Assembly: GCA_964620245.1 (NCBI GenBank)
Contig: CAZUJC010000002.1
Span: 68-64,067 of the forward strand
Length of the DNA: 64,000 nt
Origin: an uncultured Pseudomonadota bacterium
GTDB lineage: Bacteria; Babelota; Babeliae; Babelales; JACPOV01
Reading direction: 5' to 3'
Shown piece by piece: positions 5,240 to 64,000 of this stretch (position 1 is the first letter of the stretch; each line of letters begins with the position of its first letter). A program made the translations under genes and the position numbers. The notes below the pieces were generated by a model. That model searched no databases and was not told the DNA's origin. It saw only the letters and a list, made by a program, of their open reading frames with translations.

Positions 5240-6684
5240 GCTTGTTGGATGTACTGCTTAAGTTTTTTTGCATCTAATTTTTTGAGTTGTTGATAGGCGA
5301 TTGCCATTCTGGGATTGTGTGCGAGCTTTTTTTTATTGCGGTACAAAAAAAACCAGTAATGAGCATTCCATTGATCACACCACGCCCCTTTGTGGAATGT
5401 TGTGCTCATGGTACGAATGTAGTTTGAGGACGAAATATATGGTTTTGTCATCATCAGGCCGCCGTCAGCAAATTGGCTCATGCCAAACACATTTGGAATC
5501 ATTACCCAGTCATAAGCATCAATAAAAAGTTCCATAAACCATTTATAGACATCTTGCGGATTGGTTTGGTGTAAAAGCATATAGTTGCCAAGAATCATGA
5601 GCCGTTCAATATGGTGAGCGTAAGCATAGGTGAGTACTTTCTGTATGGTGGTGTCAATTGGTGCGATGCCAGTGGTTGCGTTCCACCATGATGAAGGTAG
5701 TTTGTGGGTGTGTTTGAAAAAATTGCTTTTTTTCTGTTTTTCACCATGCATGATATAGATACCGCGTACATATTCTCGCCAACCAAGAATTTGTCGAACA
5801 AACCCTTCGATGGAATTAAGCGCAATCGAATGTGCGCGGCCATACGCAACTGCTTTTTCAACAACAAATTGTGGGGTGAGCAATCCACAATTGAGCAACG
5901 GTGAAAGCACTGAATGAAATAAAAATGGCTGTTCCTGGTTTATGGCATCTTGGTAAACACCAAAAAAGGCAAATCGTTTGTGTAAAAAATCATCAAACCA
6001 CCTATGAGCGTCATTAAAAGTGACCGGATAACAAAATTGATTAATGCTACCCGGATTTTTTGCAAAACAGTTTTGTGTATAGCTCATTGCTTCTTTAACA
6101 AACGGAGTTGTTTTTGGTTTCCATGCGGGTGGTATTTTTATGTGAGCTGGAATTTTTTTTCGATTTTCCACATCAAATGTCCATTTGCCACCAATTGGTT
6201 TATTTTTGTGCACAAGAATCGAAAAACGTTTACGTTGCTGTACATAAAAAGGATACAACCGAAACGATTTTTTCGCTTTTTTAAACGTTTCACGAACGAT
6301 TTTGTCAGAAAGCATGAATGCAGGTGTTTCATGTTTTTCTGTTTTGATTGAGAGTGATTTGCATAGTTTATTAAGCGATTTCTCAACGATCGTATCAACT
6401 GGGTCGATATACTTAATTTTTTTTATTTTATGTGCGTTAATTATTTTTTCTATTGATTCATTAAATGAGCAATAGAGTACGGTATGTTTGTTTTTTTTAA
6501 GATGCTGTTTATAAAATTGCATTGTTGCGCGATGAAGAACTAATTTCGTTTTATGAAATCCAAATCGCGTGAAAAAATGAGGTGCTTCCCACAAAATAAG
6601 CGGAAGATCTGTTTTTAGTAATTCATGATGCTCAAAGAGTTGATGCGGAAAAATGAGAATCACTTCATCATATTGTTTTTTCAT
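5221..6684 (-). CDS. Cryptochrome/photolyase-family protein of the FeS-BCP / prokaryotic (6-4) photolyase type (PhrB/CryB-like, COG3046)
   Basis: 487 aa. Blocks GGKWTFDVENRKKIP, HSVLSPLLNCGLL, IEGFVRQILGWREYVRGIY, AYAHHIERLMILGNYMLL and IPNVFGMSQFADGGLMMTKPYISSSNYI match the PhrB/CryB family as I recall it. The start overlaps the stop of the upstream photolyase (ATGA). Confidence 0.75.
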   Translation of the reverse strand: MKKQYDEVILIFPHQLFEHHELLKTDLPLILWEAPHFFTRFGFHKTKLVLHRATMQFYKQHLKKNKHTVLYCSFNESIEKIINAHKIKKIKYIDPVDTIVEKSLNKLCKSLSIKTEKHETPAFMLSDKIVRETFKKAKKSFRLYPFYVQQRKRFSILVHKNKPIGGKWTFDVENRKKIPAHIKIPPAWKPKTTPFVKEAMSYTQNCFAKNPGSINQFCYPVTFNDAHRWFDDFLHKRFAFFGVYQDAINQEQPFLFHSVLSPLLNCGLLTPQFVVEKAVAYGRAHSIALNSIEGFVRQILGWREYVRGIYIMHGEKQKKSNFFKHTHKLPSSWWNATTGIAPIDTTIQKVLTYAYAHHIERLMILGNYMLLHQTNPQDVYKWFMELFIDAYDWVMIPNVFGMSQFADGGLMMTKPYISSSNYIRTMSTTFHKGAWCDQWNAHYWFFLYRNKKKLAHNPRMAIAYQQLKKLDAKKLKQYIQQAQSLSV

Positions 6685-8066
6685 GATTTTACATCTCGGT
6701 ACATAATTTTTGCACGCGTACTTTCTTTTTGATGATCAACCATTGGGCATGGATAATCAATGGTGTATTTTGTGCATTGTTTGTACCATGCATGAATTAT
6801 ATCTGATGGAAGATTTTTTAATTCAGGAATCCAACGTTTGATATACACGCAATCACGATCAAATTTTTTTTGCTGCAACCATGGATTGAAAATGCGAAAA
6901 TAGGGTTGCGCATCACATCCGGTTGAAGCACTCCATTGCCAATTACCATTATTGACTGATGGATCGTAATCAACTAGTTGTTGGGCAAAATATTTTTCAC
7001 CCCAGCGCCAATCAATATGCAAATCTTTCGTTAAAAATGATGCAACAATCATGCGCACTCGATTGTGCATGAATCCAGTGGTGTTAAGTTGCCGCATGCC
7101 TGCATCAACAATGGGAAAGCCGGTTGTTCCAGTGCACCACCGGTTAAAATCTTTTTTATCAGCATTCCATGGTAATGTATCGTATTTTTTATGAAAAGCA
7201 TGACCAAATACGAATGGTGAATGATAGGCAACATGGGTGAAAAAATCACGCCAATAGAGTTGGCGCACCAATGGATGATGTACACCGAGTGTTGTGCTCA
7301 GTGCGTGATGAACTTGACGCACCGAAACGGTGCCAAATTTTAAATGTGCAGAAAGTCCAGTGGTAGGTAGCGCAGGAAAATCACGTTCTTTTTGATAATT
7401 TATAAATTGCTTGAGCGATTTTAAAATACGCAATGCATTACTGCTGCCACCGTGCACATGAATTTTTTTGTTTGAAGTTGGGATAATCTTTTTATAGATC
7501 ACATTTGCAGTACATGCAGCATCAATTTTTTTTTGATAAAAATGAATTGATGGTAATTTTTGTGGTTTTTTTACCGGATGATAAAGCGACGCTTTCAAAA
7601 ATGGGGTGAAAATACTGTACGGTGTACCATCTTGTTTGAGAATTTCTTCTGGTTCATGCAACAATGCATCACCACATTGCTCAAACTCAACTCTATGGTG
7701 AACGCAAAGTTTTTTTAGTGCTTCATCACGTTTGATGCTGAATGGCGTATAATCACGATTGGTAAAAACTACATCAATTTTTTCAGTTTTCAACAATCGT
7801 TCAACAATCTGCAGCGTTTTTCCGGAAAAAAAATATAAGCGTCCTTTTTTTTTCTTAATTTGGTTATCAAGATCTTGGAGAGATTCGATCATGAATTGAA
7901 TTGCATTTTTGCTGCGATAGTTATTGTAAGAACCAACTTGTTGTTCATCAAAAATAAAACAGGGAATAATAGTTGTCGATTTTTGTGCAGCAGCAATTAA
8001 TGCGGTATTGTCTTGAAGCCGTAGATCACGATGAAAAATAAAAAGAGCAGTGCGAGGCGGTTTCAT
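6681..8066 (-). CDS. phr: Deoxyribodipyrimidine (CPD) photolyase / DASH-type photolyase-family flavoprotein
   Basis: FAD-binding C-terminal signature TGFPIVDAGMRQLNTTGFMHNRVRMIVASFLTKDLHIDWRWGEKYFAQQLVDYDPSVNNGNWQWSASTGCDAQPYFRIFNP. The N-terminus ALFIFHRDLRLQDN resembles E. coli Phr. I place the start at ATG 8066 (MKPPRTALFIF); the ORF-track start at 8117 would overlap the MerR gene by 47 nt. Confidence 0.9.
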   Translation of the reverse strand: MKPPRTALFIFHRDLRLQDNTALIAAAQKSTTIIPCFIFDEQQVGSYNNYRSKNAIQFMIESLQDLDNQIKKKKGRLYFFSGKTLQIVERLLKTEKIDVVFTNRDYTPFSIKRDEALKKLCVHHRVEFEQCGDALLHEPEEILKQDGTPYSIFTPFLKASLYHPVKKPQKLPSIHFYQKKIDAACTANVIYKKIIPTSNKKIHVHGGSSNALRILKSLKQFINYQKERDFPALPTTGLSAHLKFGTVSVRQVHHALSTTLGVHHPLVRQLYWRDFFTHVAYHSPFVFGHAFHKKYDTLPWNADKKDFNRWCTGTTGFPIVDAGMRQLNTTGFMHNRVRMIVASFLTKDLHIDWRWGEKYFAQQLVDYDPSVNNGNWQWSASTGCDAQPYFRIFNPWLQQKKFDRDCVYIKRWIPELKNLPSDIIHAWYKQCTKYTIDYPCPMVDHQKESTRAKIMYRDVKS

Positions 8067-8070
8067 ATTT

Positions 8071-8442
8071 TTATAACAGTTCACGCAATTTAATAAGTTG
8101 TTTTTGTAGTAACGCAATTTGTTGCGTAATAGATTCGGGAATTAGAGCATTTGGTTCTTGATGAATTACAAAACTTGTTTTTGCAGATGCAGTAATGTTG
8201 GTAAGCGGTTCTTGTTCTTCAAGTAGTTTTTTTGCACCAGCAATGGTAAAACCTTGGCTATAAAGAAGTTCTTTAATTCGTTTGAATCGTTCAATTTCAT
8301 ATTGTTCATAACAACGCTGGCCACCAATTGAACGCGAACAACTTAAACCGAACTCTCGTTCCCAAAAACGAATAACAAATCGTTTCACATTGAGTTCTTT
8401 GGCAACATGGCCAATTCGATATTGTTTTCTTTGCCTATTCAT
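8071..8442 (-). CDS. MerR-family transcriptional regulator (short, no effector/B12 domain)
   Basis: 123 aa. The N-terminal HTH YRIGHVAKELNVKRFVIRFWEREFGL......GGQRCYEQYEIERFKRIKELLYSQGFTIAGAKKLL is a canonical MerR helix-turn-helix plus wing. Confidence 0.8.
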   Translation of the reverse strand: MNRQRKQYRIGHVAKELNVKRFVIRFWEREFGLSCSRSIGGQRCYEQYEIERFKRIKELLYSQGFTIAGAKKLLEEQEPLTNITASAKTSFVIHQEPNALIPESITQQIALLQKQLIKLRELL

Positions 8443-8567: not shown

Positions 8568-10130
8568 ATGAAATTTAGAGAAATTTTTATTGCATTCACA
8601 TTGGCAGTAATTACTGCAGCAGCTTTACAATATTTTTTGGGTCGGTACACGAGTTCAGACACTGGCGAAATAGCACGCTCCGGGCAACGATTTAGTGCGC
8701 CTAAATCTACCGATATGCAAATGTACAAACCGTTAAATTTGGAAATTGATTTTGTTGATATTAAAAGTACCAAGCAGCCGGTTGTAACAACACTCAAAAC
8801 AGATCACGCCCTTTATGAGTTTTCAACCGACGGTGCCGCATTGCGCCGTTTAGAATTTACACGAAACTATGGTGGCAAAGAACAATCGTTCAGCACCGTT
8901 TTCCCTCCAGCAGCAACCGATCGTGAAAAAAGTTGTTTTCTCGTTGCACTTGATCAGCAAACACCGTATGTCTTTGATCTGATAGATCAACAAGAAACTG
9001 AACAAATGTACACATTAAGCTACAAAGCTTCCATAAACGGTGGTGCTCTGTTCAAGAATTTTAGTGTGTTTAAACATGAACATCGCATCGATTTAGAACT
9101 TGCTCTTCAAGTCGCGCCTGGTGCAGCAGCACAACAAGCACGTATTTTCATACCAGCACCACTGGTACCTGAGCTTGCTGGAGAAGATGCCGTAACAGGA
9201 CTTGCTAACGATGATCGAAATAAAATTTTGATTTTGCCTCGTGATGCCCAAACAGCTTCATCATATTGGTCACGGCCGACACTTTTTGGTGCACAAGATC
9301 GCTACTTTGCGCATGCGATGGTAAGTGATCAACAGCAATTTACGCAACGTGGTTACTTTAAAGCGGTAGATATTGAAGGATGGTTTGCAATTCTTGAAGG
9401 ACCACAAGTTACCACCGATAGTTCATGGAAATTGACTTTCTATATGGGACCAAAAGAAGATCATGCAATAAATCAAGTTGATAGTCGTTTGGAGCAAACA
9501 CTCAATTATGGTTTCTTTTCGTTCATCTCAAAACCGCTTTCAAAATTAATGTTGCGTGCGCTTGATTTGATTTATGGCGTTGTGCACAATTATGGTTGGG
9601 CAATTATTATTTTGACTATTTTACTTAAATTGCTCTTGTTACCATTTACCTGGCGTGGTGAGCAAAGCATGAAATTGCGATTAGAGTACCAAAAGAAACT
9701 TGCCTATATTGAATCAAAATACAAACATGATAAAGAAACATTAGCACATGAGCGTGCAGAGTTGGTGCGTAAATATGGTATGCCAGGAATGGCGAGCTGT
9801 TTGCCGTTGCTGTTACAATTACCAATATTCTGGGCATTGAGCATTATTCTTGCTAATTCGATTGAGTTGTATAAAGCGCCGTTCTTGTGGATCCCTGATT
9901 TGTCGGCACGTGATCCATACTATATTTTGCCAATTTTAGTGGCAATCGGTATGATTTTACATTCACCTGCAGTATCTGATGCAAAGCAACGAATTTCATC
10001 GATTGGAATGGCATTATTAATTGCAGCACTTATCTCTAGTTTTTCAAGTGGATTGGCGCTCTTTACGGTGGTGAGTACATTCTTGGGTGTTGCGCAAGCA
10101 CAACTGATGAAAGTTATGAAGCATGATTGA
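8568..10130 (+). CDS. yidC: Membrane protein insertase YidC (long form with periplasmic P1 domain)
   Basis: 520 aa: N-terminal TM, large soluble domain, then the Oxa1/YidC core ..GWAIIILTILLKLLLLPFTWRGEQSMKLRLEYQKKLAYIESKYK.D.E....E...L.RKYGM.P..SCLPLLLQLPIFWAL. Confidence 0.9.
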   Translation: MKFREIFIAFTLAVITAAALQYFLGRYTSSDTGEIARSGQRFSAPKSTDMQMYKPLNLEIDFVDIKSTKQPVVTTLKTDHALYEFSTDGAALRRLEFTRNYGGKEQSFSTVFPPAATDREKSCFLVALDQQTPYVFDLIDQQETEQMYTLSYKASINGGALFKNFSVFKHEHRIDLELALQVAPGAAAQQARIFIPAPLVPELAGEDAVTGLANDDRNKILILPRDAQTASSYWSRPTLFGAQDRYFAHAMVSDQQQFTQRGYFKAVDIEGWFAILEGPQVTTDSSWKLTFYMGPKEDHAINQVDSRLEQTLNYGFFSFISKPLSKLMLRALDLIYGVVHNYGWAIIILTILLKLLLLPFTWRGEQSMKLRLEYQKKLAYIESKYKHDKETLAHERAELVRKYGMPGMASCLPLLLQLPIFWALSIILANSIELYKAPFLWIPDLSARDPYYILPILVAIGMILHSPAVSDAKQRISSIGMALLIAALISSFSSGLALFTVVSTFLGVAQAQLMKVMKHD

Positions 10131-10722
10131 TCAAGTGCCCGCACTTGCGCAGTTAGTTAAACAATTGCAGCAGATTCCGTATTTGGCATCGAAAAATGTA
10201 TACCGCGTTGCGCACTATTTTTTAATGCTTGATCAAGCACGTGTACAACAACTGTGTAAAATTATCATCGATGCAAAAATGCAGGTAGTTGCGTGTCAAA
10301 CGTGTTTTGTTTGGAAAGAAAAGGATCGAACCTGTCCGTTTTGTGATTCAAAGCGACGAGATGTATCGGTTATTTGCGTAGTAGAAACGTGGCAAGAGTT
10401 AATGGCAATTGAAAAAACTGGAGGCTATCAAGGATTGTACCACATTCTTGGCGGCGCAATTTGCCCGCTTAATGGTATAGGTCCTGAAAATTTGACAATT
10501 GATCCATTAATAAAAAGAGTGAACGAATCGGTGCGAGAAATAATTTTAGCGACCAATCAAACACCCGAAGGTGAAGCAACAGCTTCATATATTGCTTCGA
10601 AGTTGAAAGATTGCTTGCTTAAAATTTCATGTTTGGCTCGTGGTGTTCCAGTCGGTTCTACGCTGGAGTATATGGATCGCGTAACTGTTTTTAAAGCGTT
10701 GTCTGAGCGACGTCCGTTTTAA
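10123..10722 (+). CDS. recR: Recombination protein RecR
   Basis: 199 aa with a C4 zinc finger CQTCFVWKEKDRTCPFC followed by a Toprim region (VICVVETWQELMAIEKTGGYQGLYHILGG..SPL.G). The start overlaps the end of yidC by 8 nt. Confidence 0.9.
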   Translation: MIDQVPALAQLVKQLQQIPYLASKNVYRVAHYFLMLDQARVQQLCKIIIDAKMQVVACQTCFVWKEKDRTCPFCDSKRRDVSVICVVETWQELMAIEKTGGYQGLYHILGGAICPLNGIGPENLTIDPLIKRVNESVREIILATNQTPEGEATASYIASKLKDCLLKISCLARGVPVGSTLEYMDRVTVFKALSERRPF

Positions 10723-10724
10723 AT

Positions 10725-10922
10725 TTACTCTGGGTAATCGGCACATTCTCGTACTGAACCGTCTTGTCCAGAAAGTAAACACCCATTACATTGAATACAA
10801 CATTCACGATTTACAAATCGTCCATCTTTACAACATTCTTCGCAATTGACTGCTTGCAAAGAAGGAACATTAACTATAAAAATTGTCGACAAAAACAGTA
10901 CTACTGCTGTTAATTTCTTCAT
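10725..10922 (-). CDS. Secreted cysteine-rich micro-protein (hypothetical)
   Basis: 65 aa with signal peptide MKKLTAVVLFLSTIFIVNVPSLQA. The remaining ~41 aa contain 9 Cys (VNCEECCKDGRFVNRECCIQCNGCLLSGQDGSVRECADYPE). No family recognised. Confidence 0.55.
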   Translation of the reverse strand: MKKLTAVVLFLSTIFIVNVPSLQAVNCEECCKDGRFVNRECCIQCNGCLLSGQDGSVRECADYPE

Positions 10923-10982
10923 GTACAGCTCCTTTTGGTTACTATCTAGTGTATAAAATTGAGCTTTGAAAAAGCAATAAAT

Positions 10983-12176
10983 TTAGGGTTCTATTTTGGG
11001 CTTTTTTGCGATCTGGTCGATATTTGGATAGGGGAACTCTTCATTATTTCCGGCCAAAATAAGAGATGGTTGGTAGTCTCGTACGTTGAGTCGCTCATGT
11101 TCAATCAGCGCTTGTTCAATGCTCGGTTGATGTTTTTCATTCGGTTCATGAAGAAGAATAGGGTAAATTGTTTCTAAAAAATCGTTAAATTTCCCGCCAA
11201 CTTGTTCCTCGGGAGTAGATTGAATGAGTTCAAGTTTGCGTTTGCGGCTGCTGATTGAAGGAATATATTCTTTGATTTTTGGTTCATATGAAAAGGATCC
11301 AACATTGGTTCGCATAGTTGTAGCTAAAGTGCATGGTGTGAATTGGTTGAGCTCAATTGCTCTTGTGAGTCGGTGCATAGGTGTACAACAAGAATCAATG
11401 GCGATGATTGCTTTTGGATGGTGTGAAAAAAAGTAGGTAAAGATTTCACGGATCTTGTTTTCAGGAATACCAGCAATTCGAGGATAGTCGCTATCAATGT
11501 CATTTGCGTGACCGGTCAAATATACAAGCAACGGTTTTTCTTGAGGACTGATAATAAAGTTGTTTAATTTATCAATCCAATTATTGGAATTTGCTTCGGG
11601 AAGTTTGTAATAAAGCGGTGCAAGCATATGCTTAAATGTTTTAGTGTTTATGATAGTGCGAGCAGTGCCATTTTTTTTTACATAAACAAGTCCGAGCATT
11701 GTGTCGTAGCATGTCCATTCATCTTGTTTAAACGAGAGAACAGTAGTAAGTTTTTTTCTCATGTGAGAGCTATTTTCATTTTCGATTGATACATTTATTT
11801 GATTTGTTTTTTCATTAATCGAAAAAGCTCCAGTTTCATCTATTTTAATTTGTGATGCAGGTTGGGTGATTGAGTAATTATGGTAAAAAAATCGTTTAGC
11901 CTTTAAATTTCTTTTGCTAAATCTTTTCCAGAGACTGTAAGGAACAAAGAGATGATTACTTTTTTTACTCAGTAATGTGGTCAGAAAATCATGGTAAATA
12001 GCAGATTTCTTTTCGAGTGTTTCAATATCATAAATTTCAGTAGCAGTTTGTGTTGTGCTGATAAAAAAACCGATCGCATGATTATATTTGTTTTCCATTC
12101 CATGAAGATGTGCAGAAAATAAGGTCAGTAAGTTGAGCAGGGAGAGTGATGCAAAACTGAAGTAGGTTTTTTTCAT
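10983..12176 (-). CDS. Secreted hypothetical protein with a possible clan-CD (legumain/GPI8-like) His/Cys dyad
   Basis: I place the start at ATG 12176, which gives signal peptide MKKTYFSFASLSLLNLLTLFSAHLHG. The C-terminal half has LLVYLTGHAND followed 38 aa later by AIIAIDSCCTPM (hydrophobic strand-His ... hydrophobic strand-Cys). The functional assignment is tentative. Confidence 0.6.
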   Translation of the reverse strand: MKKTYFSFASLSLLNLLTLFSAHLHGMENKYNHAIGFFISTTQTATEIYDIETLEKKSAIYHDFLTTLLSKKSNHLFVPYSLWKRFSKRNLKAKRFFYHNYSITQPASQIKIDETGAFSINEKTNQINVSIENENSSHMRKKLTTVLSFKQDEWTCYDTMLGLVYVKKNGTARTIINTKTFKHMLAPLYYKLPEANSNNWIDKLNNFIISPQEKPLLVYLTGHANDIDSDYPRIAGIPENKIREIFTYFFSHHPKAIIAIDSCCTPMHRLTRAIELNQFTPCTLATTMRTNVGSFSYEPKIKEYIPSISSRKRKLELIQSTPEEQVGGKFNDFLETIYPILLHEPNEKHQPSIEQALIEHERLNVRDYQPSLILAGNNEEFPYPNIDQIAKKPKIEP

Positions 12177-12232
12177 GTAATTCAGTACACTAAAATTAAG
12201 GTGGTTAATTAACACTATTCACAAGGAATTCT

Positions 12233-13564
12233 ATGCCGATTATTGAAAAACATGATACGGTTTTTTTTAAAAATCGTCGAGAACAGCTTATACAATTAGT
12301 TAAAGAGCAGTATGCCGGCGCACAAAAAGGCATAATTTTATTGTTTGGGGCGTTTGAGACACATTCTGTATTCAAACAAGAACGTTCATTCTATTATCTG
12401 ACCGGCATAGAAGAACCTGCATCAGCATTAATGATTGATTTAGAAAAAAATTGTACGACCCTATTTGTTCCTAACTATGCGCAAGAACGTGCGAAATGGG
12501 CATCGTCGGCTGTTTTTGCGGATCAAAAAGAAAAATTTGGATTTGACGAAATTGAGTATCTCGGTCAAGAGTGTAAAGGATACCAATGCCATCCATTCTT
12601 TACCAAAGATCAATATCACAATTTATTGGTAATTCTGAATGATTATGTGCAAAATAAACGACCAATTTACACCCTCAATCCTCAAACCGCTTCTGGGTAT
12701 GTTGAACAACGTTTTATTTTGCAGCGAATTGCACAGCTAATTTCAGGACTCAATGAACAGTTAATTGATATTTCACCGTTGGTCGCGCGCATGCGCCGTG
12801 CAAAATCGCGCCAAGAAATTGAATACATTTACAAAGCAATTGATGTAACCATAGATGCGCATGATGCAGTCGCACGCGCAATCGGACCCGACAAAAAAGA
12901 GTATGAAATTCAAGCGCTTCTTGAGTATATGTTTACGGTGCGCGGCTGTTCGATTGCTTTTCCAAGCATTGTGGCTTCAGGAAAAAATGGGACTGTTTTA
13001 CATTACAATAAAAACAATGCAACAATGAAGCCTGGAGAGCTAGTTGTTGTTGATATTGGTGCGGAATATAATTATTATTGCGCCGATTTGACGCGAACTT
13101 TTCCTGTATCGGGTACTTTTTCCAAGCGGCAACGGGAATTATATTTGATTGTTCTGGAAACGCAAGAATACATTGCTCAGCTTGCGCAACCTGGTATGTG
13201 GATTGCCAACAAAGATAATCCTGAAAAATCGTTGATTCATTGTGCCCAGAAGTTTTTACAAAAACATGGGTATGACAACTATTTTGTTCATGGCATTGGT
13301 CATTTTCTTGGCCTTGATGTGCATGATGTTGGTGATTATACACAACCGTTGCAACCAAATGATGTGATTACCATAGAACCAGGAATTTATATTCCGGAAG
13401 AAAATATTGGTATTCGTATAGAAGATAATTATTGGATAGTTGAGGGTGAAGCTATTTGTTTGAGCGAAGATTTGCCCAAATCACCCGATGATGTTGAATT
13501 AGCAATGGCACATGCAACTGGCAATGAATCGACGAGTGAAGAATCGGAAGAGCAAGAAAATTAA
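12233..13564 (+). CDS. Xaa-Pro aminopeptidase / prolidase (peptidase M24B)
   Basis: 443 aa. Metal-ligand blocks VVDIGAEYNYYCADLTRTF, HGIGHFLGLDVHD, EPGIYIPE and IRIEDN are typical of M24B. There is an acidic C-terminal tail (ESTSEESEEQEN). Confidence 0.85.
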   Translation: MPIIEKHDTVFFKNRREQLIQLVKEQYAGAQKGIILLFGAFETHSVFKQERSFYYLTGIEEPASALMIDLEKNCTTLFVPNYAQERAKWASSAVFADQKEKFGFDEIEYLGQECKGYQCHPFFTKDQYHNLLVILNDYVQNKRPIYTLNPQTASGYVEQRFILQRIAQLISGLNEQLIDISPLVARMRRAKSRQEIEYIYKAIDVTIDAHDAVARAIGPDKKEYEIQALLEYMFTVRGCSIAFPSIVASGKNGTVLHYNKNNATMKPGELVVVDIGAEYNYYCADLTRTFPVSGTFSKRQRELYLIVLETQEYIAQLAQPGMWIANKDNPEKSLIHCAQKFLQKHGYDNYFVHGIGHFLGLDVHDVGDYTQPLQPNDVITIEPGIYIPEENIGIRIEDNYWIVEGEAICLSEDLPKSPDDVELAMAHATGNESTSEESEEQEN

Positions 13565-13601
13565 AAAAAAAGCGATGCTTTTTTAAGGCACCGCTTTTTT
13601 T
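13563..13601. terminator. Bidirectional rho-independent terminator between convergent genes
   Basis: A-run, then stem AGCGATGC (13571-13578) / GCACCGCT (13588-13595) with 7 of 8 pairs, then a T-run. It reads as a hairpin plus U-tract on both strands. Confidence 0.6.
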
Positions 13602-13619
13602 AGGTTGTGAAATAAATTT

Positions 13620-13964
13620 TTAGCTATTTGCGGCTTTAAATTTTTCATAGAACGCAATGACATCTTTTGAGCCGAGTGCCAATGCAGCAAAGCCGACTAC
13701 GAAACCCGCAGCAACTAGTTTACTCGATACTTTTTTGCTTTTGAAAAGTTTATAAATTCCCATAATTGAACCAGCTGCACCGATTGCTGCTATCGCTGCA
13801 ACGCGCGGATCATTGTCATTTGGTGTGAACCATTTATGAGCAAGATAATTTTGAGCACTCGTAATCTTTTGTGTAACTTGTTGTTTGAAATCTGCTTGAC
13901 CATTTCTACTTTGAACTAATACAGTACCGAGTAAAAATGCCACTAATAAACGACGATATTTCAT
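13620..13964 (-). CDS. Small secreted/membrane hypothetical protein
   Basis: 114 aa. Signal-like N-terminus MKYRRLLVAFLLGTVLVQS and two Gly/Ala-rich hydrophobic segments (AAIAAIGAAGSIMGIY; LVAAGFVVGFAALALG). No family recognised. Confidence 0.5.
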   Translation of the reverse strand: MKYRRLLVAFLLGTVLVQSRNGQADFKQQVTQKITSAQNYLAHKWFTPNDNDPRVAAIAAIGAAGSIMGIYKLFKSKKVSSKLVAAGFVVGFAALALGSKDVIAFYEKFKAANS

Positions 13965-14038
13965 ATATATTCCTCCACATGTTCATTTGTATTCATTCTA
14001 CCAGAACTGATAAAATCGACAATGAGGGGGTATTTATA

Positions 14039-15634
14039 TCAAATTTGGCGATTTTTGGTCAGATAATTCATGATCATGAGGAGAATAACGGCAATTGTTA
14101 TACCTGTTCCTAACGACGCCGCACAAGCGATTGCTACTCCATATGGAATTAAAAACCCAGCAACTAAATAGGCAACGAAGGTGGCAAACAATGCAGGAAG
14201 TGCATAAGGTAATTGCGAATATACATGGGCCTGCAAATCTGCTTGTGTGCTTGCAGCTGCCATAATGGTGGTGGTTCCAATTGGTGAAACATGATCACCA
14301 GCAACAGCACCGGCAAAAACGGCACCAACAACCGGAAGTACCAAAAGAATCTGATCGATGGAAGTTGGTGTTGTCATATTGGTAAACGAAGTAACCAGTG
14401 GAACTGCAAGTGGTACTAATACTGCAATAGTGCCCCATGAAGAACCGGTTCCTATAGCTGTTATAAGTGAAGTTACATAAAACATTGCAGGCAAAAATGC
14501 GCTGCTTACTGAGCCAGCAAGTAATTGTGCAAGATAATCGCCTGTCTGTAGATCGTTTTTTAACAATGTTCCGAATGTCCAAGCAAGAAAGAGAAGAATA
14601 ATTGAATCTTTCATGAGCTGCCAACCGCCATGCGCAAGTACTGATAATCCGGCAAAAATTATCGTTTTTCGTAGCAAGGCGAGTGCAACACTCAAAATGA
14701 ATGAAGTAACACTGCCAATTAACAGTGCCAAAAAAATATCGGTTTGTTGCATTGTTTGACTGAGTGAATTTGAACCACCAAAGAGTTTTGAATCACCAAG
14801 GTAGAGAATAGTGATGAGTACAAAGCTAATCAATGAGGCCAAAGGAAAAATGAAATCTAAAAGAGTCCCTTTTGAATCAGCTTGGTTTGTCATCGCTGAT
14901 GCTGGGACAGGTGCTCCACCAAAAAGATTTCCCGTTTCTTGAGCAATTTGTTCATGTGTGTGCATGAGTCCCCATGAGCTTTTTGAGCGCACAATGTAAA
15001 TTACTGAAGCACTGATGATGAACGAATATAAAATAAATGGAATTGTCTGCAAATAAAAAGCAAATGGATCTTCTAAAATGAGAGGCTTATCAGAGCTGTT
15101 GATTGAAACTCCAGCCTTTTCGAGCTGCATTAGAATCATTGCTATCCAAGTTGAAACAGGTATCAGAATAATAAGTGGTGCGGCTAGTGAATCGATCAAG
15201 AATGCTAATTTAATTCGAGGAATTCTAAATGAATCGGTGACCGGTTTCATAATAGAACCAACAGTCAAAATGCTAAAAAAATCGTCGATCGCAAAACAAA
15301 ATGAAAGCAATACAGAAGCTGTTTCTGTTGTACTACCTGAGGTAAGTCTTTTTTTTATTAATTTACCGTATGCAATGGTGCCACCGGTGTGTCCCATGAG
15401 TGTAATCAGTGCTCCAAGGATGAGTAAAAAACCAAAGGTATACAGATTTGCAAGTTCAAACTGTGCTTGAATGTTTTGTGCAATAATAAGTGCTGTTTGG
15501 TAGAGCGAGAAATCGGCGACAATTGCTGATCCGGTGATTATTCCGATACTAAGTGCCAATAAAACGCGATGAGTAATAAACGCTAAAGCGATGACAAGAA
15601 CAGGAGGAAGCAAAACAAGCCACGATAACTGCAT
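14039..15634 (-). CDS. NhaC-family Na+/H+ antiporter-like transporter
   Basis: 531 aa and polytopic. The N-terminus SWLVLLPPVLVIALAFITHRVLLALSIGIITGS and the overall layout resemble the NhaC/MleN family. Substrate unknown. Confidence 0.6.
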   Translation of the reverse strand: MQLSWLVLLPPVLVIALAFITHRVLLALSIGIITGSAIVADFSLYQTALIIAQNIQAQFELANLYTFGFLLILGALITLMGHTGGTIAYGKLIKKRLTSGSTTETASVLLSFCFAIDDFFSILTVGSIMKPVTDSFRIPRIKLAFLIDSLAAPLIILIPVSTWIAMILMQLEKAGVSINSSDKPLILEDPFAFYLQTIPFILYSFIISASVIYIVRSKSSWGLMHTHEQIAQETGNLFGGAPVPASAMTNQADSKGTLLDFIFPLASLISFVLITILYLGDSKLFGGSNSLSQTMQQTDIFLALLIGSVTSFILSVALALLRKTIIFAGLSVLAHGGWQLMKDSIILLFLAWTFGTLLKNDLQTGDYLAQLLAGSVSSAFLPAMFYVTSLITAIGTGSSWGTIAVLVPLAVPLVTSFTNMTTPTSIDQILLVLPVVGAVFAGAVAGDHVSPIGTTTIMAAASTQADLQAHVYSQLPYALPALFATFVAYLVAGFLIPYGVAIACAASLGTGITIAVILLMIMNYLTKNRQI

Positions 15635-53513: not shown

Positions 53514-53972
53514 ATGGCAAAACATGTTGGTGTAAAGCTTCCTGAAGATTTAATAAAAGTACTTAAAAAAGGTACCGTTGGTACGTTGGCAACTTTTTCT
53601 GAAAAAGGTTTACCTCATACAACACCAATTCAATGTGTGTATCCAAAGGGTCTTGAAAGTATTTTAATGACGATTCACAAAGATCATACTGGCTACCATA
53701 ATATGGTTTGGCAAAAAAAAGTGATGATTGGTTTTCTTGATGAAGGTAACGTTGCGTATAGTGTTTTAGGACGTGCTGGTGTTGTGCGAGCGCCATCTCT
53801 TGTACATCCATTGATGAATGTAGTGCGCATCGATATTATTGACATTAAAAGTGATCGTTCAACTTTGACACGTGTTGAAAGTGGTGTACGCTGGAGTTAC
53901 GCGTCGTGGGAAGCTGAAGAGCTTTCAAAAGGGTTGATAAATGAACTTAAAGAGTTGTCTGAGTCGTTGTAA
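53514..53972 (+). CDS. Pyridoxamine-5'-phosphate-oxidase-like (split-barrel flavin-binding) family protein, putative
   Basis: ..LKKGTVGTLATFSEKGLPHTTPIQCVY....ILMTIHKDHTGYHNMVWQKKVMIGFLDEGNVAYSVLGRAGVV resembles the PNPOx-like fold pattern. ATG 53514 follows an AAAGGA SD; the ORF-track start is 53484. Confidence 0.4.
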   Translation: MAKHVGVKLPEDLIKVLKKGTVGTLATFSEKGLPHTTPIQCVYPKGLESILMTIHKDHTGYHNMVWQKKVMIGFLDEGNVAYSVLGRAGVVRAPSLVHPLMNVVRIDIIDIKSDRSTLTRVESGVRWSYASWEAEELSKGLINELKELSESL

Positions 53973-53991
53973 AAAAGGAAGTGGAGTGCCT

Positions 53992-55449
53992 ATGAAAGAA
54001 GCGAAATATTCGCTCATCTTAATTGTTTTCTTTTTATGGCAAAATAATACTTTTTGTGCGTTGGCGCCTGCAGGAACCCCTAGTCCACAGCAGGTGCTGC
54101 AGCAAGCGCAAGAACTAAAGGCCCTAGAAGAAAAAAAACAGGAAGAGGCAGCAAAAAATGCCGCGCAAAAAATGACCAACGAGCAAGAAGCGGCACAGAA
54201 AATGCAGCAAGAAAAAAAAGCTGCTGAAGAAAAAAAAGTAGAAGAGGATAAAGCAGCGCAAGAACTTAAGAAAAAAAATGAAGCAGCGGCTAAGATTGCA
54301 ACAGAAAAGGCAGCAGCTGAACAACAATTAAAAAAACAGCAAGAACAAGCTCAAGCAGCGCTCAAAAAAGAAACTGCAGGGGCACCTGAAGCACCAAAAG
54401 TATTAGAACCAGTAAAAATTGAGCAAAAAGAATTAGAGCCGCGAGTCGAGGAACCGCTCGGAACTATTGATACAGTTAATATTGAAGAAGGTGGCAACTG
54501 GTTATTAAAAAGAAAAGCGCTTGAAGATACCATTGATACGATTGAAAAATCAAACGGCGTGTTTACGCAAATTCTTGAATCACGCATGAATTACAAAATT
54601 AAGCAAAATCAACTTGATAGTGAATATGACAAATTTGTTTCCGAAGTTGGGTTTGACATTGGTGATGCGGAGAAATTGCTTGCCGATTTAACTGAGCGTG
54701 TTAATCAAGAACGTGTAACACAGGGTGATTTGACAGAACCTGAACGTGAGCTGCTCACTGCAATTACCGAAAAACAAAATGAACTTAAATCGTTGCAAGA
54801 AAGTTTGGAAACAATCGGGCAAATTGAAAAAAAGATTATCGATGTTATGACGACGATCGATAATCAGATTAAAATTTCCAATACCTATCAAAATCAGGCG
54901 TGGAAAAATTTCCAAGAAATTAAACAGGTACTCAGCGATGAACGAGCTGAAGAACTCTATTATAACACTGATGGTATCTACAAAAGTTTGCAAGAAATTT
55001 ATACCTATCTTAAAGGAACACTAGCTTCCTATTTTAATGAGCAAATTCAAGCGATGCGCGATCAAATGTCAAAAGTCAAAGCGTCGGTTAATTCTTTGCA
55101 ACAAAAAGGAATCGATTTAAAAGCAGAGTTTGAGAAACTTGAAAAACAAGATCTTGAGATTGACCAAAAACGGATGAAAGAAGAAGTTGAGCAGGATGTT
55201 GAACAGAAATTAAAAGCAATAATGGAGCGAGAGAAAAAAGAGCAAGCATCACGTGGTTGGTGGTCATTCGTAAAAAAATCGTTTTCCAATTTTTTCAGTT
55301 TAATTGGTAATTTTTTTACTGGTTTGTGGGATAAAATTGCAAGTTTGTGGCGTAAACCTATCCAGCCTGTTCTAGAGGCTGTAACAGTACCGCACGAAGT
55401 GCCCCATGCAACTGAACCTTCAAATACGGAGCAACCAGTTACTACTTAA
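53992..55449 (+). CDS. Secreted coiled-coil hypothetical protein with K/E/A/Q-rich low-complexity region
   Basis: ATG 53992 follows AAGGAAGTGGAG. Signal peptide MKEAKYSLILIVFFLWQNNTFCALA, then about 110 aa of K/E/A/Q repeats, a long heptad-rich region, and a C-terminal amphipathic/aromatic segment WWSFVKKSFSNFFSLIGNFFTGLWDKIASLW. Confidence 0.6.
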   Translation: MKEAKYSLILIVFFLWQNNTFCALAPAGTPSPQQVLQQAQELKALEEKKQEEAAKNAAQKMTNEQEAAQKMQQEKKAAEEKKVEEDKAAQELKKKNEAAAKIATEKAAAEQQLKKQQEQAQAALKKETAGAPEAPKVLEPVKIEQKELEPRVEEPLGTIDTVNIEEGGNWLLKRKALEDTIDTIEKSNGVFTQILESRMNYKIKQNQLDSEYDKFVSEVGFDIGDAEKLLADLTERVNQERVTQGDLTEPERELLTAITEKQNELKSLQESLETIGQIEKKIIDVMTTIDNQIKISNTYQNQAWKNFQEIKQVLSDERAEELYYNTDGIYKSLQEIYTYLKGTLASYFNEQIQAMRDQMSKVKASVNSLQQKGIDLKAEFEKLEKQDLEIDQKRMKEEVEQDVEQKLKAIMEREKKEQASRGWWSFVKKSFSNFFSLIGNFFTGLWDKIASLWRKPIQPVLEAVTVPHEVPHATEPSNTEQPVTT

Positions 55450-60580: not shown

Positions 60581-62323
60581 ATGCATTTTGAAACGGTAGC
60601 TCAAGAATTTCAGCAGTTAGAAACGACGAGCTCTCGTATTGAAATGACCAAAATTCTTGCTCAGTTATTTAAAAATGCATCGCCACAAGAAATCTCTATT
60701 TTGAGTAATCTGTCTCTCGGTATGCTCCGTCCTCCCTATAAAGGCACCCTATTTAATTTTGCAGAAAAAAATCTAACCGGTGTTGTGGCACACTTACTTA
60801 ATCAGACTGAAAAAGAAGTTGCTGTGCATACAAAAGAATTAGGAGATTTGGGTCTTGTTGTTGCCAAATTTGGCAGATGGAAGCCACACAAAGAGCTTAC
60901 GGTAGAACAAGTGTACCATGCTCTGTGCGATTTTGAACAGGTAAGTGGAAAAGGCTCTCAGGAAGACAAAGCTGATCGTGCATTGAAATTATTAAAAGAG
61001 GTGACTCCCCTCGGGGCAAAGTTTATTATTCGTATTATTTTAGGAACGCTGCGGCTTGGTTTTTCTGATATGACGATTATTGATGCATATTCATGGATGG
61101 AAACAGGTGATAAATCACTGCATACCGCTATTGAAGATGCTTACAATAAATGTGTTGATATTGGCTATATTGGTCAATTGCTTAAAGAGCGCGGCATTAA
61201 AGCGCTCAACAGTATGACAATTGAAGTCGGTATCCCCATTCGTCCTGCGGCTGCTGAACGTTTGCCAACACCAAAGGCAATTATTGATAAAATTGGTTCA
61301 TGTGTTGCGCAACCGAAATTAGACGGTTTTCGCTTGCAAATACACATAGATAATACGCAAAAAAAACCGCGAATCGAGTTTTTTTCACGAAATTTGATTG
61401 ATATGTCACATATGTTTCCGGATTTGGTTGAAGCATTGAGTCATTTACCGGTAAAAACGATGATTTGTGAAGGAGAGGCTATCTCGTTTGATCAAAATAC
61501 CGGTACGTTTCTTCCATTTCAAGAAACAGTAAAACGAAAAAGAAAACATGGCATTGAAGAGGCGATTACTGAATATCCGTTGCGCGTATTCTTGTTTGAT
61601 CTTTTGTATTTAGATGGGCAGGAATATTTGAGTAAATCGCACGAAGAACGTCGCACGAAATTGCTTTCTCTTTGTAAATCTATAAAAAATGAAGCTATTC
61701 AAGTAATTGGGGAAAAGTCGATACATTCGGCACAAGAACTTGAAGATTATTTTTTGCATAATATTGAACAGGGCCTTGAAGGATTAGTGGTAAAAAAACC
61801 TGATGCTATTTATCAGCCGGGCAAGCGCAATTTCAACTGGATTAAGCTCAAAAGACATGAAGAAGGTCACTTGGAAGATACAATTGACTGTGTTGTATTG
61901 GGATACTATTCCGGTTCGGGAAAACGCGTTTCGTTTGGTATGGGCGCATTCTTGGTTGGCGTATACAACAAAGAGCTTGATGCATTTCAAACGGTTGCCA
62001 AGATTGGTACTGGGTTAAAAGATGATGAATGGAAAGAACTCAAGCTTACATGTGATAAAATTCACGTTGCCGCACAACCAAAAAACGTGATTTGTGCTAA
62101 AGAATTAGTGCCCGATGTATGGGTAAGTCCTGATATTGTGTGTATGATTCGTGCTGATGAGATTACCCTTTCTCCCTTGCATAGTGCTGGCAAAACAGAA
62201 AAACATCTGGGGTATGCTTTGCGGTTCCCTCGCTTTATGGGTTATCGACCTGATAAACAGCCTTTTGAGGTTACTTCGGTTACCGAAATTAAACATCTTT
62301 ACGACGACCAATTCAATAAATAA
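60581..62323 (+). CDS. lig: ATP-dependent DNA ligase, three-domain archaeal/eukaryotic Lig1-like type
   Basis: 580 aa. The N-terminal DNA-binding domain (FETVAQEFQQLETTSSRIEMTKILAQLFK.., GKGSQEDKADRALKLLKEVTPLGAKFIIRIILGTLRLG) parallels archaeal ligases. Motif I is AQPKLDGFRLQIH (Lys246, codon 61316-61318), III is EGEAISF, IIIa is FLFDLLYLDG, IV is EGLVVK, V is NWIKLK, and the C-terminus reads ALRFPRFMGYRPDK. Confidence 0.88.
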   Translation: MHFETVAQEFQQLETTSSRIEMTKILAQLFKNASPQEISILSNLSLGMLRPPYKGTLFNFAEKNLTGVVAHLLNQTEKEVAVHTKELGDLGLVVAKFGRWKPHKELTVEQVYHALCDFEQVSGKGSQEDKADRALKLLKEVTPLGAKFIIRIILGTLRLGFSDMTIIDAYSWMETGDKSLHTAIEDAYNKCVDIGYIGQLLKERGIKALNSMTIEVGIPIRPAAAERLPTPKAIIDKIGSCVAQPKLDGFRLQIHIDNTQKKPRIEFFSRNLIDMSHMFPDLVEALSHLPVKTMICEGEAISFDQNTGTFLPFQETVKRKRKHGIEEAITEYPLRVFLFDLLYLDGQEYLSKSHEERRTKLLSLCKSIKNEAIQVIGEKSIHSAQELEDYFLHNIEQGLEGLVVKKPDAIYQPGKRNFNWIKLKRHEEGHLEDTIDCVVLGYYSGSGKRVSFGMGAFLVGVYNKELDAFQTVAKIGTGLKDDEWKELKLTCDKIHVAAQPKNVICAKELVPDVWVSPDIVCMIRADEITLSPLHSAGKTEKHLGYALRFPRFMGYRPDKQPFEVTSVTEIKHLYDDQFNK

Positions 62324-62386: not shown

Positions 62387-62414
62387 TTGACAGTATTCCC
62401 AATATATTTACACT
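62387..62414 (+). promoter_or_regulatory. Candidate sigma70-type promoter for the AAA+ gene
   Basis: Consensus TTGACA (62387-62392), 16-nt spacer, TACACT (62409-62414), about 75 nt upstream of ATG 62489. Confidence 0.3.
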
Positions 62415-62488
62415 TATTATTAGGTAAGAGAAATTAGGGCTGTTGTCAAAACAGCGACTAATAAGCTTTTTAAATGGGGGTTTATTTT

Positions 62489-64000
62489 ATGTCTCAAAAA
62501 AAAGCAGTTATTGCTTTGTCATTAATTTTATTTAATTGCTTGAATGCAAATGACACGGTTAAAGGTCTAGAAGTTATAGATCCACTAGTTGAAAAAATAT
62601 CTGAAGGTGTTGGCAAAGGTATTGCTACCGGTGTAGCTGATGGTATTGAAAAGGGCGCTGGCGGTATTGTTACCGGTGCTTCAAAAGCATTTGAAGAAGA
62701 ATTTGGTCAAGATGGTCATGCATACGGCGGCGTAAGAAACGTTTTCAGAAGTATTGGTGACCAATTTAAAAAAGAGGGTGAAGGTCGTGCGGCTGTTGAT
62801 AATGCCTTAGGGGCCATTGCCGATTCATTTGGTGAAGATAGTCAGGGCAGACGTGCAGCAATTAATGCAGCACAAACAACCAATACCTATGTTGATAGTG
62901 TTGGTAGTTCTGTGGCAAAAGCTACTGGAAAAGTTGGGATGAATGCAGCTTTAACAGCAATATTTGGCACACTTGGTGCAGCAACGGTATGGTATGGTTC
63001 AAAACTTTTATGGAGCTGGATTGAAAAGAAACTTTTTAAACCTAAAATCCTGATCACTTTTGCAAAAAAAGGAATCGCGCAAAAGAATGCTAAAGAACGA
63101 AAACGAAACAAGATGCCCGAGCCTGTTATGGTTTTCGATTCAGCGCTTCAAAAGCGGTTAGATGGCATCGTAGAAACAACCAAAACAATCAATAAAAAAA
63201 TTAAAGAAAAAAATAAAACAGTCAAATACAGAAATTTATTACTTTACGGGCCACCTGGAACTGGTAAAACTCTTTTTGCTCAACAATTAGCAGAACGAAG
63301 TGATATGGCTTTTGCAATGGCAAGCGGTGCATCTTTTGCCAAAAAGGGAGCGCTTGAAGCAATGGATGAACTGTTTGAATGGGCCAAAAAAAGCAAAGGG
63401 CTGATGCTCTTTATCGATGAGGCGGAATCGCTGTTACCTGATCGTAATGATCTGAAACCTGACAGTGATGCGTATCGCGTGTTTACCAATTTTCTCAATC
63501 ACACGGGAACCCGCAGTGATAGATTTATGATTGTGTTAGCAACAAATCGTTTAGGTGTGATCGATCAAGCAATGCAGCGACGTATCGACGATCTTGTTGA
63601 ACTTGCATTACCGGGAAAAGAGCAACGAAGCGCAGTCTTGCGGGCATACCGTGACATTGTTCTTGCTGATAAAGTGCATAATACTGCCGAGTTTATCGTA
63701 AGTGTATATGCCGTGCTATCTGATGAAAAGATTGAACAAATTGCCCAAAAAACAGCTGGTCTTTCCAATGGTGATCTAGAAGGGATCGTTAATATGATTA
63801 AAACAGACGCTGATACTACAATCGATGGATTGATAACTGAAACTATCGTGGATACAAGTGTCAAGCGTGCACTTGATAAGTATGCTCAGTTTAATCAAAA
63901 ACCGGTATTGAGTGAACCGATGCAGTTGGATCAAAAAACTAAGGGTATAGTCATCGCTCTGATTCTTTCTGTCATTGTTCTCTTGTTTTTATTGCTTCGG
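62489..64000 (+). CDS. Membrane-anchored AAA+ ATPase, ATAD3-like; ORF continues past the right edge
   Basis: My own translation (504 codons, no stop; absent from the ORF track). Signal peptide [20 protein letters not shown], a Gly/Ala-rich region, a TM ([20 protein letters not shown]) and a basic linker. The AAA module is [23 protein letters not shown]..(Walker B) [36 protein letters not shown]. This tracks human ATAD3 ([52 protein letters not shown]) as I recall it. A further hydrophobic segment ([18 protein letters not shown]) sits at the window edge. Confidence 0.82.
   Translation, partial: [504 protein letters not shown]

Follow-up and report, generated by a model that had tools for sequence, protein, structure and literature searches.

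An ATAD3-like, membrane-anchored AAA+ ATPase in a Dependentiae genome

The gene and the architecture of its protein

The window analysed here is a 64,000-nucleotide (nt) stretch of contig CAZUJC010000002.1 (GenBank assembly GCA_964620245.1) from an uncultured bacterium of the Dependentiae (TM6). Its last gene encodes a membrane-anchored AAA+ ATPase, which by sequence comparison is a homologue of ATAD3, an ATPase of the mitochondrial inner membrane, and belongs to a large family of bacterial proteins. The reading frame at 62489–64000 on the plus strand contains 504 codons and no stop codon, in agreement with an earlier note made from the letters of the window, which reported a frame of more than 500 codons leaving it. 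The end of the frame, the recovery of which the note had proposed, is supplied by two relatives. The database protein P0001, 99% identical to the window protein, has the C-terminus ...LLLRKK, and in the near-identical contig L081 the gene stops there and is followed by a convergent gene with an RRM domain. Therefore, the window misses only two codons and the stop codon. The features of the gene, all on the plus strand, are as follows:

62489–64000, plus: coding sequence of the ATAD3-like AAA+ ATPase, residues 1–504 of 506, with the last two codons and the stop codon past the window end
62489–62548, plus: signal-peptide-like N-terminus with a basic n-region, a hydrophobic core and a small residue at –1; cleavage is predicted
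62549–62932, plus: Gly/Ala-rich domain, residues 21–148, predicted to be periplasmic and all-helical
62606–62677, plus: glycine-zipper-like stretch of the Gly/Ala-rich domain, read from the sequence
62696–62761, 62762–62827 and 62828–62905, plus: three consecutive repeats of ~22 residues, F-x3-G-x-G-R-x-A-[VI]-x-N
62933–62998, plus: transmembrane (TM) helix, residues 149–170, moderately hydrophobic (1.44)
62999–63073, plus: juxtamembrane motif common to ATAD3 (YIEARLGKPSLVRETSR), from the BLASTP alignment
63074–63235, plus: basic linker and pre-AAA helix (...KYRN), the helix covering residues 223–244 with a predicted local distance difference test (pLDDT) score above 90 in the AlphaFold2 (AF2) model
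63236–63604, plus: AAA+ large domain, Pfam PF00004, residues 250–372, E 2e-21
63248–63271, plus: Walker A, GPPGTGKT, starting at residue 254
63332–63361, plus: pore loop 1, shortened and without an aromatic residue, from the alignment
63401–63427, plus: Walker B, LFIDEAE, read from the sequence
63533–63547, plus: sensor-1 Asn in VLATN, from the alignment
63566–63592, plus: arginine finger or fingers in QAMQRRIDD, from the alignment
63605–63928, plus: AAA lid (small helical) domain and long C-terminal helix, pLDDT above 90; the ATAD3 alignment reaches residue 562 of ATAD3
63944–64000, plus: C-terminal hydrophobic helix, residues 486–504, followed by KK; putative second membrane anchor, hydropathy 2.98

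Every part of the architecture that the note had described (signal peptide, Gly/Ala-rich region, TM helix, basic linker, one AAA module, and C-terminal helix) is found in the protein. Kyte-Doolittle hydropathy delimits three hydrophobic segments, comprising residues 1–20 (1.46), 149–170 (1.44), and 486–504 (2.98). The Gly-rich repeat domain between the first two segments is kept in P0001–P0013 and is weaker in the L005 group (187 bits over residues 37–476). It has no Pfam family, also when scanned at E ≤ 1, and gave no match when searched alone; its helices have pLDDT values below 50 in the AF2 model. The view that this domain has no counterpart in ATAD3 proved correct, as the ATAD3_N family (PF12037) remained unmatched at E ≤ 1.

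The TM helix is followed by a very basic flank (residues 171–216), with 12 lysines and arginines within residues 180–209. The juxtamembrane motif in this flank corresponds to the last positions of the Pfam ATAD3_N model, of which the last ~15 are visibly in common, and its proline (Pro190) is invariant in 40 of the 40 aligned bacterial and ATAD3 sequences.

Pfam recognizes one AAA domain in the window protein and nothing else. The domain has the features of a classical AAA module: Walker A, Walker B of the form hhhhDE, the sensor-1 asparagine, the arginine finger of the second region of homology (SRH), and the lid motif G-x-S-x-x-D/E. The Walker A lysine, the Walker B aspartate and glutamate, the sensor-1 asparagine, and the arginine of the finger are invariant in the 40-sequence alignment. 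AF2 predicts a confident classical AAA fold, with pLDDT above 90 for residues 220–470. A Foldseek search of the PDB, which holds no ATAD3 structure, returned generic classical AAA matches only (Rpt, p97, and FtsH, at E~1e-14). Compared with the other family members, the subclade of the window protein has a pore loop 1 that is shorter by two residues and contains no aromatic residue; the corresponding segment has the consensus SFAKF..GEG in the family and reads APMGREG in ATAD3.

The AAA module and its membrane-proximal linker resemble ATAD3

The note had aligned the linker and AAA core block for block with ATAD3, and the alignment was reproduced by BLASTP with database sequences of ATAD3. The window protein is 32% identical to fish ATAD3 (P0080) over 302 residues (E 5e-40). 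This alignment begins just past the TM helix, at YIEARLGKPSLVRETSR of ATAD3, and spans the linker, pre-AAA helix, AAA core, lid, and last helix. With a protist ATAD3 (P0105) the identity is 29% over 356 residues, and the TM helix is included. The similarity reaches ~70 residues upstream of Walker A. The proposal of a membrane-anchored, single-module, ATAD3-like AAA+ protein in a bacterium is thus supported by an alignment extending from the juxtamembrane motif to the terminal helix.

In the database search, the best single-AAA matches outside the bacterial family were the ATAD3 proteins P0077, P0080, and P0105, which combine PF12037 with PF00004 and scored 125–137 bits. Local per-domain scores of P0001 against ATAD3 were 126–138 bits. 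In the PDB sequence set, which we take to include FtsH, Yme1, AFG3L2, Rpt/PAN, p97, NSF, katanin, Vps4, Msp1, BCS1, and CbbX, per-domain scores reached ~57 bits at best, and the top single-domain chain had 66 bits. Among the NCBIfam models of prokaryotic AAA proteins, the highest score was that of PAN (72 bits, cutoff 500), and IteA reached 65 bits (cutoff 510); none of the models PAN, CDC48, CdvC, IteA, EccA, SpoVK, and ClpX was matched above its curated cutoff, and all cutoffs were 500 or more. In the reverse direction, ATAD3 scored 134–224 bits against the bacterial family, 44–59 bits against FtsH and CDC48 domains, and no more than 56 bits against any single-domain PDB chain. In searches of either direction, the scores for ATAD3 are therefore about twice those of any other family of AAA proteins that was tested.

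The likeness extends to residues outside the catalytic motifs. Ten non-catalytic positions (T236, N254, L272, W303, S307, G309, A317, T344, M352, and Y392) have a conservation of 80% or more when ATAD3 is pooled with the bacterial groups (60–100% in ATAD3 alone), and of 12% or less in outgroups. Examples are W303 in the motif F-[ED]-W-A, A317 past Walker B, and T344 in F-L-x-x-T-G. The median distance from the TM helix to Walker A is 84 residues in the main bacterial family, 86 in a second bacterial subfamily, and 94 in eukaryotic ATAD3. Because the pairwise alignment, the forward and reverse scores, the tree described below, the shared residues, and the spacing all agree, the resemblance to ATAD3 as judged from sequence is specific and goes beyond generic AAA similarity.

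An ordinary bacterial AAA protein of the FtsH, CbbX, or SpoVK type, with a likeness to ATAD3 limited to the generic Walker motifs and SRH, would account for the Pfam assignment to the generic AAA family, for the generic classical AAA matches of Foldseek in the PDB, and for the name "AAA family ATPase" that NCBI gives to relatives. We regard this explanation as practically untenable. It is effectively refuted by the twofold difference in scores in both directions, by an alignment that takes in ~70 residues before Walker A as well as the lid, by the ten shared non-catalytic residues, and by a 100% bootstrap split from FtsH/CDC48-type domains. A similarity confined to the Walker motifs, which the note had named as evidence against its claim, is at odds with the extent of the alignment and the ten residues.

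A family of bacterial ATAD3-like proteins

An exhaustive search of representatives gave 213 proteins at E ≤ 1e-30, the top 150 of which belong to the bacterial family or are giant proteins with multiple AAA modules; ATAD3 is not among these 150. About 120 single-domain clusters, formed at 50% identity, match the entire 307-residue query, and identities within the family go down to ~35%. The giant proteins (P0123, P0124, P0138, P0150, and others) are 1000–2100 residues long and contain 3–6 tandem AAA modules, and they score like family members because their domain scores sum. On viral contigs, only generic AAA matches were found, with 23–36% identity over the core.

The typical family member consists of an N-terminal signal-like segment, a variable N-domain of ~100–350 residues, a TM helix, the juxtamembrane motif, and the AAA module. 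The N-terminal hydrophobic segment is present in 105 of the 127 full-length members, and a TM helix lies 60–135 residues before Walker A in 115. A C-terminal TM helix occurs in only five of the 127, which are the closest relatives of the window protein. Most members outside the subclade of the window protein retain an aromatic residue in pore loop 1.

Several subgroups can be distinguished; the taxon labels of their metagenome-assembled genomes (MAGs), which are Chlamydiae, Pseudomonadota (L005, L019), Epsilonproteobacteria (P0302), and Bacteroidota (L014), are quoted as deposited; for L005, L019, and P0302, neither the G+C content nor the adjacent genes pointed to a taxon. The L005 group, the type MAG of which is labelled Pseudomonadota, has the Gly-rich N-domain of the window protein. 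The second subfamily from Dependentiae/Babeliales (type P0249/L006) is large, has a charged coiled-coil N-domain, and is the group closest to ATAD3 (190–225 bits). Five of its members pass the gathering threshold of Pfam ATAD3_N over the last 46–118 positions of the model, which are proximal to the TM helix. Several members of this type carry the automatic name "ATAD3A/B" of the Joint Genome Institute (JGI), and the name given by NCBI is "AAA family ATPase". In representatives of the other bacterial groups tested, a scan at E ≤ 1 found no ATAD3_N. A small group from Babeliales comprises L008 and L010. Another group, from MAGs that are labelled Chlamydiae or unnamed (L007, L009, L011, L012, L013, and L015), forms a clade with 100% support in the tree; its proteins have a TM helix and the motif NIGKPKL, then an insertion of ~150–200 residues with additional hydrophobic segments, and then the AAA module.

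As to the taxonomic distribution of the best matches, which the note had wanted checked, all named relatives are "Candidatus Dependentiae", Babeliales, or Chromulinivorax, and one member, P0043, comes from "Candidatus Chromulinivorax sp.". Besides the Dependentiae and the MAGs labelled Chlamydiae, members occur in a few other protist-associated intracellular lineages. Tandem paralogues are encoded at L082 6587–9533, where the genes for P0011 (456 residues) and P0009 (510 residues) lie head-to-tail, 43 nt apart.

A protein encoded at L014 251–1861, in the MAG labelled Bacteroidota, combines a signal-like N-terminus with a long Q/E-rich coiled coil, a TM helix, and an AAA module. Its scores are ~100 bits against the window protein and only ~59 bits against ATAD3. 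In 53% of bootstraps it joins the outgroups, and it may be a relative that is more distant or convergent.

Phylogenetic position and possible origin of ATAD3

A neighbour-joining tree was calculated from 126 domains and 255 columns with a simple distance correction, 200 bootstraps, and 23 outgroup domains. ATAD3 and all the bacterial ATAD3-like groups are split from the 23 FtsH/CDC48-type outgroup domains with 100% bootstrap support, and the clustering with FtsH-type proteins that the note had considered was not seen. Eukaryotic ATAD3 is monophyletic (98%), and all bacterial sequences lie outside it. The clade of the window protein, the main family from Dependentiae, and the L005 group form a clade with 78% support.

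The branching among the window clade, the coiled-coil subfamily, the Chlamydiae-labelled group, and ATAD3 has support of only 20–45%. ATAD3 is placed nearest to the coiled-coil subfamily from Dependentiae (34%), or within a grouping of that subfamily with L008 and the Chlamydiae-labelled proteins (45%). In the outgroup-rooted tree, monophyly of all bacterial sequences to the exclusion of ATAD3 occurs in 0.5% of bootstraps; therefore, ATAD3 appears nested among the bacterial groups. We treat this nesting as a lead and not as a result, because the neighbour-joining method with its simple correction was applied to outgroup distances that are near saturation (~1.9).

The existence of a large bacterial family with an ATAD3-type core means that ATAD3 is not a purely eukaryotic invention. 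A tentative proposal, against which the odds still stand, is that eukaryotic ATAD3 shares an exclusive ancestry with, and may descend from, AAA+ proteins of intracellular bacteria that live in association with protists (Dependentiae and Chlamydiae-like lineages). If this were true, an essential ATPase of the mitochondrial inner membrane would be of bacterial but non-alphaproteobacterial origin, acquired by an ancient transfer that predates the last eukaryotic common ancestor. An ancient gene transfer may have taken place in either direction. The window protein itself lacks the ATAD3_N domain and is placed outside the eukaryotic clade, and is for these reasons assigned, on its sequence, to the bacterial ATAD3-like family and not to the orthologues of ATAD3.

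Expression signals and genome setting

The features upstream of the gene are:

60581–62323, plus: three-domain ATP-dependent DNA ligase (DNA_ligase_A_N/M/C) of archaeal/eukaryotic type, directly 5' of the AAA gene
62387–62414, plus: candidate sigma-70-like promoter, TTGACA-16 nt-TACACT, with 10 of 12 consensus matches and nothing beyond the consensus
62476–62480, plus: Shine-Dalgarno-like run GGGGG, 8 nt 5' of the ATG at 62489, read directly from the sequence

The gene caller placed the start of P0001 at the equivalent of an alternative ATG, 62474, which would give a product of 511 residues. No Shine-Dalgarno-like run precedes this codon. Since the GGGGG run stands only before 62489, this start, with a product of 506 residues, is favoured. 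The distance from the stop codon of the ligase to the AAA gene is 165 nt, and the promoter candidate would fit a monocistronic AAA gene; promoter-type sites were found three times in the region, where 1.8 would be expected. A perfect 6-bp hairpin (GCTGTT-GTCAA-AACAGC, 62439–62455) lies 3' of the promoter-like site and 5' of the start codon; it was classified as terminator-like on the minus strand, and may form a structure in the 5' untranslated region.

The composition of the window is uniform, with a G+C fraction (GC) of 0.36–0.42, and that of the AAA gene (0.39) is like its surroundings. Other genes of the window encode a MurC-type ligase, YidC, an RseP-type protease, SbcC, photolyases, SecD, a PgsA-like CDP-alcohol phosphatidyltransferase, PlsY, and UmuC. 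The order PgsA-like gene, plsY, ligase, AAA gene is kept in assemblies with orthologues of 99% and 75% identity, the latter in an NCBI MAG with identical gene order, and is not found at ~53%. No further paralogues or AAA genes were found in the 64-kb window. The gene is native to a Dependentiae genome and not a eukaryotic contamination, because the surrounding sequence is ordinary, uniform, and bacterial, the relatives are from Dependentiae, and the gene order matches that in the MAG. Cultured Dependentiae are obligate intracellular parasites of protists.

Such a lifestyle, the eukaryote-like character of the gene, and the adjoining three-domain ATP-dependent ligase would be in line with a recent horizontal transfer of ATAD3 from a host to this bacterium, a form of the first of two alternatives that the note had offered. 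For the window gene we consider this highly improbable, because eukaryotic ATAD3 is monophyletic (98%) without the window protein. The identity to ATAD3 is only 29–32%, the family splits into ~120 clusters at 50% identity and includes pairs that are no more than ~35% identical, the GC of 0.39 is like that of the genome around it, and the synteny is stable across strains. A recent capture is contradicted by these observations, and the cluster number and the monophyly of ATAD3 favour the other alternative of the note, a bacterial sister clade.

Several neighbouring genes stand apart from these questions. The gene that follows the AAA gene in convergent orientation encodes a small RRM_1-domain RNA-binding protein (L081 4902–5273 and L083 8630–8995, both on the minus strand), and in L083 it is followed by a gene for a 1679-residue protein without a Pfam match (9241–14280). 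Two open reading frames of the window, at 53941–55449 (plus strand, 502 residues) and 10983–12215 (minus strand, 410 residues), matched no Pfam family at the thresholds applied. Two adjoining photolyase-type genes (DPRP family; DNA photolyase/FAD_binding_7) are located at 5221–8117 on the minus strand, in a lineage that is regarded as obligately intracellular.

Predicted topology and function

With the predicted Sec signal peptide and the basic flank past the TM helix, the protein would sit in the inner membrane, its N-terminus outside and its C-terminus inside. The ATPase side is predicted to be cytoplasmic because the flank is positively charged, in line with the positive-inside rule. The helical Gly-rich repeat domain would thus be periplasmic, and the ATPase would lie on the cytoplasmic side of the membrane. 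This would be the topology of ATAD3, if the periplasm is equated with the intermembrane space and the cytoplasm with the matrix; in the published topology of ATAD3, the ATPase is located in the matrix, and the N-domain is directed towards the outer membrane (PMC13249166). As in other classical AAA proteins, the module probably assembles into a hexameric ring, for which the C-terminal helix may provide a second membrane attachment in the subclade of the window protein. Since all the catalytic residues are intact, the protein can be expected to hydrolyse ATP.

We propose that the protein is a hexameric ATPase of the inner membrane with ATAD3-like topology, which acts as an ATP-driven scaffold or remodeller of the envelope or its membranes, and we give this reading a probability of roughly 0.6; its functional part is inferred. 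Nucleotide-dependent movements of the ring would be passed through the juxtamembrane and TM segments to bundled periplasmic domains, and these domains could organise contacts between the inner and outer membranes, or membrane and lipid domains of the envelope. The combination of a conserved motor, a variable ectodomain, and several paralogues suggests that the periplasmic partners differ.

The main rival, which we hold to be unlikely, is a quality-control or extraction unfoldase for membrane proteins, either a protease-less FtsH-like motor or an Msp1-like extractase, that pulls substrates through its central pore. The classical AAA fold with intact Walker A and B, sensor 1, and arginine finger, the anchoring of the module near the bilayer, the aromatic residue in pore loop 1 of most members that do not belong to the window subclade (consensus SFAKF..GEG), and the automatic annotation of a member of the 75%-identity cluster as "FtsH 3" are all compatible with such a motor. 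The window protein, however, lacks an M41 peptidase domain and scores 59 bits against the FtsH model (cutoff 600), and its sequence resembles ATAD3 far more than FtsH, Yme1, or any unfoldase of solved structure. Furthermore, pore loop 1 of its subclade is two residues shorter and has no aromatic residue, which is comparable to APMGREG of ATAD3. Because of this shortened loop without an aromatic residue, we consider processive threading of polypeptides unlikely.

A second rival, attractive but minor and in our estimate quite improbable, is a host-directed mimic of ATAD3. The protein or some of its paralogues would be exported, for example in outer-membrane vesicles, inserted into membranes of the host mitochondria, and would remodel or tether the organelle for the supply of ATP. 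Chromulinavorax destructans, a member of the Dependentiae, wraps around and expands the host mitochondrion, sheds outer-membrane vesicles, and has signal sequences in 44% of its proteins (PMC6561590). The occurrence of the family in protist-associated intracellular lineages (Dependentiae, Chlamydiae-labelled MAGs, and a few others), including the "Candidatus Chromulinivorax sp." that encodes P0043, is in line with this idea, as are the paralogues with variable N-domains and the one orthologue that adjoins ankyrin-repeat genes. Nevertheless, the Sec signal peptide, the internal TM helix, and the basic cytoplasmic flank are expected to keep the protein in the inner membrane of the bacterium, and neither a secretion signal nor a chaperone partner was found. 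The window protein also lacks the N-terminal domain with which ATAD3 makes its contacts to the outer membrane and cytosol, and an identity of 29–32% reflects a deep divergence and not a close mimic.

Several observations weigh against the envelope scaffold or remodeller that we prefer, in addition to the low support and near-saturated distances of the tree. The N-domain does not match ATAD3_N even at E ≤ 1, and is unique to its own clade. The central TM helix is of moderate hydropathy (1.44), and cleavage of the signal peptide and the topology are predicted solely from hydropathy and charge. No conserved operon partner was found, and the neighbouring genes differ at ~53% identity. The confinement of the family to host-associated bacteria would equally fit a host-directed role. 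Finally, the molecular mechanism of ATAD3 is itself unsettled (PMC13249166, PMC13108849), and for this reason the analogy to ATAD3 has limited mechanistic content.

Relation to the ATAD3 literature

ATAD3 is essential in animals, plants, and Plasmodium, and is mutated in human neurological disease. The protein was initially thought to be restricted to multicellular eukaryotes (PMC13249166), and the literature treats it as eukaryote-specific. None of the papers returned by full-text literature searches connects ATAD3 with Dependentiae, Chlamydiae, or homologues in prokaryotes, and an ATAD3 paper from 2026 makes no mention of bacteria. The label "ATAD3A/B" was already present on some family members among the automated product names of JGI.

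The main interest of the bacterial family lies in the origin of ATAD3, a question that it opens and that phylogenetics can test, and in a tractable prokaryotic model of the ATAD3 motor, since its simpler proteins are on offer for structural and biochemical studies. In addition, the family is a candidate envelope or host-interface machine of the Dependentiae, parasites with reduced genomes, one of which remodels the mitochondria of its host (PMC6561590).

Comparison with known systems

FtsH, Yme1, and AFG3L2 are, like the predicted assembly, hexamers of classical AAA modules anchored in an inner membrane, with an N-domain in the periplasm or intermembrane space and the ATPase in the cytoplasm or matrix, which is the side predicted for the window protein. 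They differ from the window protein, which has neither an M41 domain nor an aromatic pore loop and scores 45–69 bits per domain against them. For FtsH in particular, the model TIGR01241 gives 59 bits (cutoff 600), and the bootstrap support for the split is 100%. A public record from the 75%-identity cluster (P0370, OQA34432.1) is a fragment named "ATP-dependent zinc metalloprotease FtsH 3", which is a misannotation, because the family has no protease domain.

Msp1/ATAD1 and BCS1 share with the window protein a single AAA module that is tethered by an N-terminal TM segment. However, they lack the juxtamembrane motif and the signature residues of ATAD3, and have no specific sequence affinity to the window protein. 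All the single-domain PDB chains rank below the top 60, with at most 66 bits, and BCS1_N was not among the best 25 families listed for the window protein in the Pfam scans at E ≤ 0.01 and E ≤ 1.

The P0249/L006 subfamily belongs to the same phylum and superfamily as the window protein, has the same layout of signal peptide, N-domain, TM helix, and AAA module, and scores ~130 bits against it. It differs in its charged coiled-coil N-domain, its greater proximity to ATAD3, a single SRH arginine as in ATAD3, and the lack of a C-terminal TM helix.

ATAD3 differs from the window protein in its N-terminal half, where a Pro-rich region and the coiled-coil ATAD3_N domain stand in place of the Gly/Ala-rich repeats. 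The window protein is bacterial (Dependentiae), carries a cleavable-looking Sec signal peptide and an additional C-terminal membrane helix, has RR where ATAD3 has D-R, and has a pore loop 1 that is shorter by two residues. It lies outside the monophyletic eukaryotic clade, and its gene is located on a bacterial contig among those of SecD, PlsY, YidC, and MurC-type proteins. In both proteins, nevertheless, a single TM helix precedes the Walker A motif of a single C-terminal classical AAA module by 84–94 residues, and the motif [WY]-x-x-I-E-x-x-L-x-K-P-x-L follows the helix. They also share W303, T344-G345, the DEA motif, and a pore loop 1 without an aromatic residue, and their predicted topologies are equivalent.

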